Positions 21,576 through 24,050 of a stretch of 64,000 nucleotides of DNA are shown here, piece by piece. A model generated the notes under the pieces. That model was not told the origin of the DNA and did no database searches. It saw nothing but the letters and a program-made list of their open reading frames with translations. Positions within the stretch are counted from its first letter, which is position 1; each line of letters begins with the position of its first letter. Location: the NCBI RefSeq assembly GCF_988243305.1, contig NZ_OZ547136.1. One strand, given 5' to 3'. The position numbers and the translations under genes are program-made.

Positions 21576-24050
21576 TTAAAAATCAGCCTGATTCGGGATC
21601 AGTTTTTGCCAGATAGTTGAAACGTATTTTGCCTGGTAACGGGCATCATCCAGCGCATTGTGGCGCTCACCTTCGAATGGAATAGCCGCCCTGGCATCGA
21701 AGTCCATGGCTTTTCCCAGCTCAACGATTGTGCGTACATCGCGATCGTTGTAGTAACGCCACGGGCAGGGGATCCCCTGCCGTTCGTATGAACGGCGCAA
21801 AATCGTGTTGTCGAAGTTGGCTCCATTTCCCCAGACCTGAACAAAAAATTCGCCGGAGTTTTCGTCGATAAATTCCCGCAATTGCAGCAGTGCATCATCT
21901 AACGGGATTTCATCGGTCAGAATGGCAGATTGCGCCTCCCGTGATTGCTTAAGCCACCATTTAATGGTGCCACGATCAATGACTCCGCCAGCAGTATCCA
22001 TATCGATGGTCTTACTAAATTCCGGCCCCATATCTCCGGTTTGCGGATCGAAAAATATTGCACCTATTGAGATAAGCGGGGCATCGGGATTTTTTCCCAT
22101 GGTTTCAAGGTCGATCATCATGTGGTGCCACATTCTGCTGGTGGATGTGATTTCTTGATGACCGTTCACCTTAATTGAGTGATCTGCCGTCTCGCCAGTT
22201 TCATTATCGCTATCGTGATGCTGATTGCCGCCAGTGTTCTCCTTGTGTGGATGTTCAGCGCCTTCCATTTCCTCTGGATCATCTTCCTGAACTTCAGGCT
22301 GATACTCTTCATCGAATGTTTCCTGGTATGTTGCGTCGCCCATTACCGCGCCACAATCAGGGCAGTTGCCGCCGCCGGTCTGACCGCAGGCGGTGCAGAC
22401 TTTTTCCACTTCCTGTTGCGCCACTGATTCAGGCTGTTTCGTTTCTGGCTCGTTTTGTAACGCATTTGGGCTGTTTTGTTCCGCTTTCTGGTCGTTCTGT
22501 TCCGTTTCTTGCTGGTTCTGGTTCACAGAATCGCGGGTCTGGTTCCCCTTAACCCATTTCGGATCATTCGGGTCGCTAATCCCTTCAACAAATTCACCAC
22601 GTGATACTGCAAGCAGTTCATCGGCGTCAGGCTGGCTGATATTGGCTGCCTGCATAATTTTGTTTACTTCGTCAGCGGTAACTTTTACTGGCTCTGGTTG
22701 TGCGGTCGTGTCAGATGCACCAGTATTTTGTTGTGAACCTGAGTATGTACCGTTTTTACGTGCGAAGTATTCCTCTTTTGTGATTTCCGTAGCTCCCAGG
22801 GCCAGTGCTTTTTCCAGACCAGAAAGTTTGTTTGCGCGACCGTATTTTTCGCCGTCCTTATCGGTGAAAAGGAAGTAGAACGGTCCCTCACGCTCTACAG
22901 ATGGTTCGTCTTCCACTTCGCATTCGGTTTTTTCGTTGTCCGGCATTGCCGTTTCCACTGCATCAGTTTCTGGTACTGGTGACGGGAGAGTACCAGCTGT
23001 GCCCTGATTTGTTCCTTCGTCATCTTCAAACACGCCCTTGGTAGTCAGGTATTCAGTGATGTATTTGTTCAGTGCTACGGGATCTTTGTGAATGTCGATC
23101 GGACGCTCACGGACAAGGCCAAAAATAGTCTGACGGTCGTAGCGAACGGCATCGGGTTGTTTGCGCATTGATGCGGAAATGCGCTTCCAGTCTTCGCGAT
23201 CTTTGTCGATAACTTCATTTTTTGCCCAGCGATGGATGCTGCCGTCAATGTTTCCGGTATCAATATCGCCAGGCCAGAGAGCGTAGGCCAGTTCTTCATC
23301 CAGCGTTTTCCATGTCTGCTTGTATTCGCGACAAATGGCGGCAGTGACTGGGTTGATTTTTCCTGCTGAGTTTTCAGTGTTCTGTTGATTGACTCTGGCG
23401 CGGGCGAGATCAACAACAGACGTGTATTTTCCGGTTTCCTTGCGTTCACCTTCGCGACGTTTTTTCCAGATGCGCATCTCTGCCTGAATTTCGGGCCATT
23501 TGGCACCAGGCTTACATTTATGCTTAACCCACCCGATGGCATGCAGCTTAAGCTCCGGATACATGGCGTTAACTTCTGGCATTTTCATCAACGCTTCAAC
23601 GATATGTCCGTCGAATGTTGCCATGTCTTCCTGCAACAATTCCTGTGCGCTAATAACCATATCAACGGTGATGTTTTCACATGTGTCGAACTTAACCATG
23701 ACAGCGTTCTGTACTTCAGGGGCCAGCTTGTCAAAAGTGACGTTCATCGGATCGGATTCAGTCTCAACCGGGACAAAGGAAGCAGACTCCTCATCCCAGC
23801 GGTTTTCCTGCATATATTCAGCATCCCAGGAATCGAGGGCAGGGCGGGGTATACCGGGTTTATCCTCGCAGACAAGAAATTTATAAGCGCAGTCCTGAGC
23901 AGCCGGATAATGCTCCAGGAATTGCCAGTGAAATTTTGCGCGGGCGCGACGTTCATCACCGGCTTCAATGGCAGTGGCTACAGCGACGGCACCTTCTTCC
24001 TTTATTGCCTGTTCGTCCGGAATGGCGGCGCAAATAAAGACTTTACTCAT
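21576..24050 (-). CDS. large early protein with C-terminal DEDDh (DnaQ-like) 3'-5' exonuclease domain
   Basis: 824-aa ORF; C-terminal ~200 aa carry MIDLETMG, WGNGANFD and HNALDDA motifs; Cys4 ribbon CTACGQTGGGNCPDCG; long acidic linker. Confidence 0.75.
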   Translation of the reverse strand: MSKVFICAAIPDEQAIKEEGAVAVATAIEAGDERRARAKFHWQFLEHYPAAQDCAYKFLVCEDKPGIPRPALDSWDAEYMQENRWDEESASFVPVETESDPMNVTFDKLAPEVQNAVMVKFDTCENITVDMVISAQELLQEDMATFDGHIVEALMKMPEVNAMYPELKLHAIGWVKHKCKPGAKWPEIQAEMRIWKKRREGERKETGKYTSVVDLARARVNQQNTENSAGKINPVTAAICREYKQTWKTLDEELAYALWPGDIDTGNIDGSIHRWAKNEVIDKDREDWKRISASMRKQPDAVRYDRQTIFGLVRERPIDIHKDPVALNKYITEYLTTKGVFEDDEGTNQGTAGTLPSPVPETDAVETAMPDNEKTECEVEDEPSVEREGPFYFLFTDKDGEKYGRANKLSGLEKALALGATEITKEEYFARKNGTYSGSQQNTGASDTTAQPEPVKVTADEVNKIMQAANISQPDADELLAVSRGEFVEGISDPNDPKWVKGNQTRDSVNQNQQETEQNDQKAEQNSPNALQNEPETKQPESVAQQEVEKVCTACGQTGGGNCPDCGAVMGDATYQETFDEEYQPEVQEDDPEEMEGAEHPHKENTGGNQHHDSDNETGETADHSIKVNGHQEITSTSRMWHHMMIDLETMGKNPDAPLISIGAIFFDPQTGDMGPEFSKTIDMDTAGGVIDRGTIKWWLKQSREAQSAILTDEIPLDDALLQLREFIDENSGEFFVQVWGNGANFDNTILRRSYERQGIPCPWRYYNDRDVRTIVELGKAMDFDARAAIPFEGERHNALDDARYQAKYVSTIWQKLIPNQADF

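Follow-up and report, generated by a model that had tools for sequence, protein, structure and literature searches.

Closest described systems

RecE (exonuclease VIII) of the Rac prophage of Escherichia coli K-12 is encoded in an early-left operon near xis and int, and its PD-(D/E)xK domain is a 5'-3' exonuclease acting on double-stranded DNA. The recE gene is followed by recT. A gene with the same operon position is described here from a stretch of 64,000 nucleotides of an E. coli chromosome (NCBI RefSeq assembly GCF_988243305.1, contig NZ_OZ547136.1), referred to below as the window. This gene is the intact form of ydfE. RecE and its 824-residue product have in common a helical core, a GEFV(D/E)GISDPNDPKW motif, a Cys4 zinc knuckle and an acidic linker, and in both the nuclease is joined at the same point, at about RecE residue 600. 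The nucleases differ: the window protein carries a predicted 3'-5' exonuclease of the DEDDh type, after which no annealase is encoded. The first ~260 residues differ as well, being a YdfE_N-type module in the window protein and a RecE-type module in RecE.

The second relative is the K-12 protein YdfE (b1577), encoded in the operon ydfABC-dicF-dicB-ydfD-ydfE-(int), whose order is that of the window. In K-12, IS2 truncates the protein beyond residue 256, and everything from the RecE-like core through the exonuclease is missing, whereas the window copy is intact.

The closest described relatives of the nuclease are T4 DexA (PDB 8KEL/8KEN) and the Pfam family PF16473, which have the fold and five catalytic residues in common with the window domain. 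DexA is a 3'-5' exonuclease that prefers single-stranded over double-stranded DNA (Kang et al. 2025, PMC12153337). Both DexA and Rv2179c consist of one domain and have ~170-230 residues, whereas the window domain forms the C-terminus of a much longer protein. It is ~20-28% identical to DexA-type proteins, is without the extra loops of DexA, and has tyrosine at the position of DexA W152. A further relative is Sb30 of ST64B, a phage without a Rec module. The catalytic domain of Sb30 is 55% identical to that of the window and its gene holds the same position upstream of xis/int, but Sb30 has 189 residues and no scaffold, whereas the window domain is fused to the RecE/YdfE scaffold.

The gene and its annotation

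A preliminary description of the locus, made from the letters of the DNA, had proposed an early protein of 824 residues. The open reading frame list and the translation agree with this and add the strand: an ATG-to-stop frame of 824 codons plus the stop codon occupies 21576..24050 on the minus strand. RefSeq places identical boundaries in an E. coli locus of 98.9% identity (L001), where the product is labelled "3'-5' exonuclease", and the protein matches PHROG 2082 over its full length. Homologues with at least 80% coverage were found in 3533 of 5426 complete E. coli genomes; the gene is among the commonest prophage genes in the species. By the Pfam score given below, the PHROG match and the genome count, the reading frame and its exonuclease are far beyond chance.

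The gene is already known. It is annotated in RefSeq, PHROGs and Pfam, its pseudogene orthologue in K-12 bears a name, and its type appears in a survey of 2025. The domain call made from the sequence mostly repeats database annotation. New here are the explicit link between the ydfE and RecE scaffolds, the mosaic picture of one scaffold with interchangeable nucleases, the association of the DEDDh type with annealase absence and Chi richness, and a Chi site at the domain junction.

The DEDDh exonuclease domain

The 3'-5' exonuclease domain of the Rv2179c-like/DexA-like DEDDh kind comprises residues 640-824 (21579..22133, minus strand). Residues 643-814 match PF16473, the Rv2179c-like 3'-5' exoribonuclease domain, with E=2.3e-66 and 223.3 bits against a cut-off of 27, and cover profile positions 2-177 of 177. 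The motifs quoted in the preliminary description are all found: IDLET at residues 646-650, WGNGANFD at 740-747 and HNALDD at 797-802, together with the Cys4 knuckle and the acidic, glutamine-rich linker that precede them.

The domain was aligned in nine sequences, namely the window protein, four diverged fused homologues, the stand-alone Sb30 of ST64B, homologues from a Vibrio and a Bacillus phage, and T4-like DexA. Invariant in this alignment are D647 and E649 of the Exo I motif D-x-E, the Exo II aspartate D747 (aligned to DexA D119), and H797 and D802 of the Exo III motif H-x4-D, which marks the 'h' subtype. The five residues are the counterparts of the DexA catalytic residues given by Kang et al. 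2025 (PMC12153337). The preliminary description had reckoned with the possibility that catalytic residues would prove absent on alignment; its DEDDh (DnaQ-like) assignment stands with all five in place, a full catalytic set of the two-metal kind.

The sole sequence match in the PDB is the 227-residue exodeoxyribonuclease of entries 8KEL/8KEN, which is T4 DexA. An AlphaFold2 model of residues 540-824 has a predicted local distance difference test score (pLDDT) of mostly 80-95 inside the exonuclease domain. The best PDB matches of the domain model in Foldseek are again DexA 8KEN/8KEL (E=3e-11), followed by RNase T, oligoribonuclease (Orn), 3'hExo and REXO2; the Cap18 exonuclease associated with the cyclic oligonucleotide-based antiphage signaling system is also among the neighbours. 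A domain search and a structure prediction had been suggested earlier, and they gave PF16473 and a DexA-like fold, with T4 DexA as the nearest solved structure. In every sequence and predicted-structure feature the domain is a member of the DEDDh group, on the DexA/Rv2179c-like branch. On this basis the identity and the chemistry of the enzyme are near certain, and its activity and substrate are predicted.

The N-terminal scaffold

The part of the protein before the exonuclease, aside from the ribbon and the linker, had been described as unknown. It proved not to be an orphan. Its residues 1-256 share 95% identity with K-12 YdfE, the product of the IS2-truncated Qin pseudogene ydfE, and residues 262-626 align to residues 278-591 of Rac RecE (BLASTP, E=6e-60), the knuckle, the short motif and the acidic linker included. 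The last ~150 residues of the RecE-aligned segment are ~80% identical, and the DNA identity of the segment is 77%. The linker is ~80% identical to RecE 533-591 (BLASTP).

The last aligned RecE residue is 591, near the start of the PD-(D/E)xK catalytic domain of RecE, and RecE residues 600-866, which hold this nuclease, gave no tblastn match in the window. Both results agree with the earlier remark that the C-terminus does not have the RecE fold. The NCBIfam RecE equivalog NF007259 is reached with 278.7 bits against a cut-off of 1269, the middle region alone matching. By sequence, the 824-residue protein is a relative of RecE and not a RecE. The preliminary description had allowed for clear homology to a characterised recombination exonuclease with a partner gene elsewhere in the prophage; such homology exists for the scaffold but does not extend to the nuclease, and no gene for a partner came to light.

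Several modules can be told apart within the scaffold, all on the minus strand. The YdfE_N-type module of residues 1-225 (23376..24050) consists of an alpha/beta subdomain (1-100) and a helical subdomain (105-225). The helical core of residues 245-340 (23031..23318) was delimited by BLASTP and domain mapping, is predicted with pLDDT 92-98, and is common to RecE (~278-337) and nearly all family members. A small beta-hairpin/helix domain follows at residues 388-435 (22746..22889; GPFYFLF...RANK...EIT.EEY.ARK), predicted by AlphaFold2 with pLDDT 95-97 and kept in the consensus of the family alignment A1.

The remaining scaffold is mostly linker. A motif search placed the conserved short linear motif RGEFVEGISDPNDPKWVKG at residues 484-502 (22545..22601) within a variable linker; its core GE[FY]V[ED]GISDPxDPKW is present in RecE and in 16 of the 51 long family representatives. 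In its variable disordered surroundings this motif resembles a docking peptide for some partner. The linker of residues 504-551 contains 21% D/E and 35% Q/N. The Cys4 zinc knuckle CTACGQTGGGNCPDC, located by its motif position at residues 552-566 (22353..22397), reads C552-x2-C555-x7-C563-x2-C566, and AlphaFold2 gives it short strands at pLDDT ~65. Since the pattern CxxCGxxGGxxCPDC, which RecE has, occurs in only eight of the 51 long representatives, the knuckle is an optional module. The acidic linker of residues 568-639 (22134..22349) has 28% D/E and a net charge of -17; in the AlphaFold2 model residues 573-638 are disordered, with pLDDT below 50. By way of these flexible linkers the scaffold tethers the DEDDh domain.

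A 95%-identical cluster representative (P0010; 23,183 member sequences) carries PF27430 (YdfE_N), PF27432 (YdfE_C) and PF16473. The first two families are assigned to the window protein by proxy, through the labels of this representative.

A mosaic family

An exhaustive search with residues 1-639 through 1.84 billion representative proteins returned only 249 clusters at E<=0.001, so the family is narrow. A word-indexed protein search with the same residues gave E. coli sequences only, almost all above 90% identity. Modules were mapped in 51 long representatives. These have one of two alternative N-terminal modules, YdfE-type or RecE-type, and the common helical core; the small domain, the short motif and the zinc knuckle are optional. 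The C-terminus is a DEDDh domain, a RecE-type PD-(D/E)xK domain or a region with no recognisable domain. All four combinations of N-terminus and nuclease exist. In one of them (P0128), a RecE N-terminus of 100% identity is joined to a DEDDh domain of 94%.

Ten representatives of the kind with no recognisable nuclease gave no significant Pfam match and one weak, sub-threshold match to Ead_Ea22. Probably these are the "RecE-2" proteins of Zheng et al. Loci L018/L019 encode, at 5001-7927, a YdfE-type relative (P0137) in which Pfam detects no nuclease; its C-terminal region matches the PHROG 'exonuclease' families 2489 and 7838. Its gene is followed by one for a Mu Gam-like (Sipho_Gp157) end-protection protein, a third kind of module combination.

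Neighbouring genes: the missing annealase

The preliminary description had noted that the gene takes the position of a recombination gene next to xis/int and that no Bet/RecT-like partner is encoded nearby. Both points hold, and the position is the one that recE has in Rac. RecT, Bet, Exo and Gam gave no tblastn match anywhere in the 64-kb window, and the PHROG scan of the window reading frames assigned none of the early-operon frames to an annealase family.

The DEDDh-type gene is followed directly by xis/int in nine loci: the window, L001, L003, L008, L009, L010, L011, L012 and phage mEp460. These loci are distinct in sequence and comprise the window, two close E. coli relatives, mEp460 as an isolated viable phage with a gene of 91.5% identity, and diverged homologues (L008, L009, L010/L011, L012). 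The PD-(D/E)xK-type genes are followed by RecT in three of four loci (Rac, L013 and L014). In ST64B the DEDDh domain stands in the same place as a gene of its own, just before xis/int. The sample is small but the pattern is consistent; it suggests that the DEDDh variant is not one member of an exonuclease-plus-annealase pair.

A separate observation concerns locus L015, where the RecE-like P0256 has a PD-(D/E)xK nuclease and where the place of RecT, at 7565-8380, goes to a protein of 271 residues with no Pfam match that falls in PHROG 3657, a family with no assigned function. It may be an unrecognised annealase type.

Chi sites and the class of the prophage

Zheng, Casjens, Davidson, Amundsen and Smith (Genome Res 2025, PMC12315714) described a "no Rec module, high Chi" class of lambdoid phages with an inferred dependence on host RecBCD. 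Among the relatives of its prototype they list ST64B, and mEp460 is the isolate with the closest known CI and Cro proteins. The same survey notes sporadic DnaQ-type nuclease genes near int and excludes them from the members of the Rec module.

The window contains 17 Chi sites against 2.4 expected from shuffled sequences. Fifteen of them lie in 20111-44800 (24.7 kb from int to the lysis genes; 0.61 per kb), 11 being on the plus strand, and the 19.2 kb that encode terminase, head and tail (44801-64000) have none. The int-to-lysis segment is the right arm of the virion DNA; Chi sites are thus abundant, co-oriented and clustered toward the right end. According to the window scans and the annotations of near-identical prophages, the prophage, as far as position 64000, is without an annealase, a Rec-module exonuclease and a RecBCD inhibitor. 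It fits the "no Rec module, high Chi" class of PMC12315714. In short flanking loci the Chi density is 0.21-0.59 per kb for the DEDDh type and 0-0.32 for the PD-(D/E)xK type, but the sample is too small and the loci are too short for a difference to be claimed.

One Chi site, GCTGGTGG (22137..22144, plus strand), lies at the junction of the linker and the DEDDh domain. Its complement CCACCAGC is read as the codons S636-T637-S638, ten residues before IDLET. A Chi ten residues upstream of IDLET is also found in the diverged homologues P0141 and P0122 (L010 nt 5642, L011 nt 7796, L012 nt 2515). The junction Chi could be a recombination hotspot that promotes the exchange of the nuclease, or simply a conserved (S/T)TS coding sequence. 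Another Chi, at 21548-21555, is inside the 65-bp gap between the stop codon of the exonuclease gene and xis.

Operon and genomic context

The window represents the cls-kch-tonB-yciABC-ompW region of the E. coli chromosome with a lambdoid prophage inserted beside ompW. The prophage is of the Qin/mEp460-like type, and the exonuclease gene is the last of its dicF-dicB-ydfD early-left (pL-type) operon. The order dicF, dicB, ydfD-like gene, exonuclease gene is that of the K-12 Qin dicBF operon, in which ydfE is last. All of these genes are on the minus strand. The small RNA DicF is encoded upstream at 24586..24637 and belongs to the same leftward operon; it scores 76.7 bits with Rfam RF00039, whose gathering score is 48. 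The dicB gene (62 residues; 24223..24411) corresponds to residues 36-97 of a 97-residue reading frame and matches Pfam DicB with E=6e-37. Immediately upstream of the exonuclease gene is a shortened ydfD-like (DUF1482) frame at 24143..24280, recognised by a weak match over 20 residues (E=7e-4). It has only 45 residues, and relatives of the locus have a full-length DUF1482 at the ydfD position; in the window the lysis gene ydfD seems to have undergone an internal deletion or decay.

Immediately downstream, also on the minus strand, come the excisionase gene xis (21263..21511), annotated as 'excisionase' by RefSeq in the homologous locus, and the integrase gene int (20155..21285) at the prophage end beside ompW, where the homologous RefSeq locus likewise has an integrase and ompW. 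Between the CI-type repressor gene and dicF, at 25161-25744 on the minus strand, are two early-left frames of 116 residues (phrog_2151) and 77 residues (phrog_751) with no assigned function.

The prophage also has two apparent DNA methyltransferase genes on the plus strand. One, at 28716-29273 in the early-right region, matches the DNA methyltransferase family phrog_954; the other, at 36001-37050 after the Q antiterminator gene, has a DNA-methyltransferase annotation in a close relative.

A scan for sigma-70-like promoters found no consensus match on the strand of the gene in 21300-25950, and fewer sites overall than in shuffled sequence. As weak support, this suggests that the exonuclease gene is co-transcribed with the upstream operon. 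Because it stands at the end of a repressor-controlled operon and has no promoter-like site of its own, it is probably not expressed in a stable lysogen.

Proposed role

Our best guess, held with slightly better than even confidence, is that the protein has a stand-alone role in processing 3' ends of DNA. The DEDDh enzyme would remove nucleotides from free 3'-OH ends during lytic development, after loss of the repressor, and its likely substrate would be single-stranded DNA, as for DexA. The RecE/YdfE scaffold would position the nuclease on its target, which may be DNA ends or a host or phage partner, and would make no catalytic contribution. In the sequence, the DEDDh domain takes the place of the 5'-3' PD-(D/E)xK nuclease of RecE at the point where that catalytic domain starts. 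Because the scaffold would merely position the nuclease and no annealase was found, the enzyme would not be an exonuclease-plus-annealase recombinase, and the phage would rely on host RecBCD/RecA for recombination-dependent replication. Since the scaffold is combined with nucleases of either polarity, both where RecT follows and where it does not, its role would be independent of the exonuclease-plus-annealase mechanism.

Several points weigh against a stand-alone role in 3'-end processing. An inhibitory effect on homologous recombination is usual for 3'-5' exonucleases (Zheng et al. 2025 citing Lovett 2011, PMC12315714), and hence a helpful role in a RecBCD/Chi-dependent phage is not obvious. 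The role of the scaffold is not known even in RecE (review PMC11611040), and structure searches with the scaffold gave no informative match. The substrate class is unreadable from the sequence: the best Pfam family bears an exoribonuclease name, and RNase T and Orn are structurally near. The pattern of a missing annealase was seen in nine loci, several of which are related by recent module exchange, against four contrasting loci; in the fourth of these (L015) an unclassified 271-residue protein takes the place of RecT. The prophage searches covered the window, and the far end of the prophage lies beyond position 64000. Literature searches for ydfE, and for Rv2179c in combination with prophage, gave no functional work on this protein.

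Alternative explanations

An unlikely alternative is competition or defence between phages, as described for HREX. The domain would selectively degrade modified DNA of the 5-hydroxymethylcytosine (5hmC) type in superinfecting T-even phages and so protect the lysogen or the induced cell. This is reported for EcD, a plasmid-borne DexA homologue of E. coli that cleaves 5hmC-DNA, leaves unmodified DNA uncut and gives protection from T4 (Kang et al. 2025, PMC12153337). EcD/HREX, like the window protein, is a DexA-family 3'-5' exonuclease found in E. coli genomes; the window domain has the DexA fold and catalytic residues, and retention of the gene in most complete E. coli genomes would fit a benefit to the host. 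However, EcD is a different, single-domain protein, to judge by its primer-encoded termini (MIDTET.../...TIPETYD against MMIDLETMG.../...LIPNQADF in the window protein), and the 640-residue scaffold has no counterpart in reasoning of the EcD type. DexA W152, which is said to stack on 5hmC, aligns to Tyr767, a comparison by alignment only. The tetramer residue D90 of DexA aligns near D719/A720, and the region of D169 has indels that make the alignment unreliable there. The probable silence of the gene in a stable lysogen also speaks against protection of this kind, as does the result of PADLOC, which matched no defence model.

The cloning primers of EcD (HAK9828821.1) gave no match in the window, and their single match in IMG/VR (L024) was an unrelated contig. 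Filing the protein as a known defence protein was dropped when PADLOC gave no match.

A 3'-5' exonuclease for RNA or oligonucleotides, comparable with Rv2179c, RNase T or Orn, is in our view improbable. Such an enzyme would act on the DicF precursor, on host transcripts, or on linear oligonucleotide signals or products of host defence resembling multicopy single-stranded DNA. The name of the top Pfam family points this way, as do RNase T, oligoribonuclease, REXO2 and Cap18 among the structural neighbours and the small RNA DicF in the same operon. Against these stands DexA, a DNA exonuclease that in sequence as well as in structure is the nearest solved relative; moreover, the scaffold is common with a DNA recombination nuclease, RecE, the genomic context gives no pointer to RNA metabolism, and the literature searches found no anti-defence work on the family.

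We are doubtful of genuine RecE-type recombination with an unrecognised partner and give it a low probability. Here a novel annealase, or host RecA or SSB, would replace RecT, and the 3'-5' nuclease would trim 3' flaps or make 5' overhangs. The position of recE and the RecE scaffold are both kept, and in full-length RecE the scaffold enhances linear-linear recombination (Fu et al. 2012, cited in PMC11611040). Zheng et al. (PMC12315714) see the DnaQ-type nuclease of epsilon34 as a likely member of a Rec module, and the early-left frames phrog_751 and phrog_2151 could in principle supply the partner. However, these frames encode only 77 and 116 residues, and the window holds no annealase homologue. 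In every DEDDh-type locus examined xis/int come next, the polarity of the nuclease is opposite to that in all known exonuclease-plus-annealase pairs, and Chi richness argues for use of host RecBCD (PMC12315714).

That the fusion is a decaying passenger, a neutral by-product of mosaic recombination among prophages with no selected function, is very unlikely: IS2 truncates the K-12 copy, a frameshift interrupts one close relative and the family is a patchwork of exchanged modules, but thousands of genomes, and mEp460 as an isolated phage, have an unbroken 2.5-kb frame, the catalytic residues do not vary even between distant phages, and the very high confidence with which four N-terminal domains are predicted from a 30-sequence alignment of 29% mean column identity implies purifying selection on them.

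Implications for lambdoid phages

A broader and rather speculative idea, to which we give little weight, is that the N-terminal ~600 residues of RecE/YdfE are a general delivery platform which lambdoid phages arm with interchangeable nucleases. A PD-(D/E)xK 5'-3' nuclease together with RecT would make a self-sufficient recombinase. A DEDDh 3'-5' nuclease with no annealase would serve a different role in RecBCD/Chi-dependent phages, either editing the 3' ends made by RecBCD or destroying 3'-ended DNA of competitors or host defence, and the junction Chi may promote the exchange of the nuclease.

The protein offers a handle on the old question of the function of the large non-catalytic part of RecE. 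Knowledge of its role would reveal how such phages cooperate with host RecBCD or guard against it, and whether the recently proposed anti-phage activity of the DexA type extends to very widespread prophage genes.

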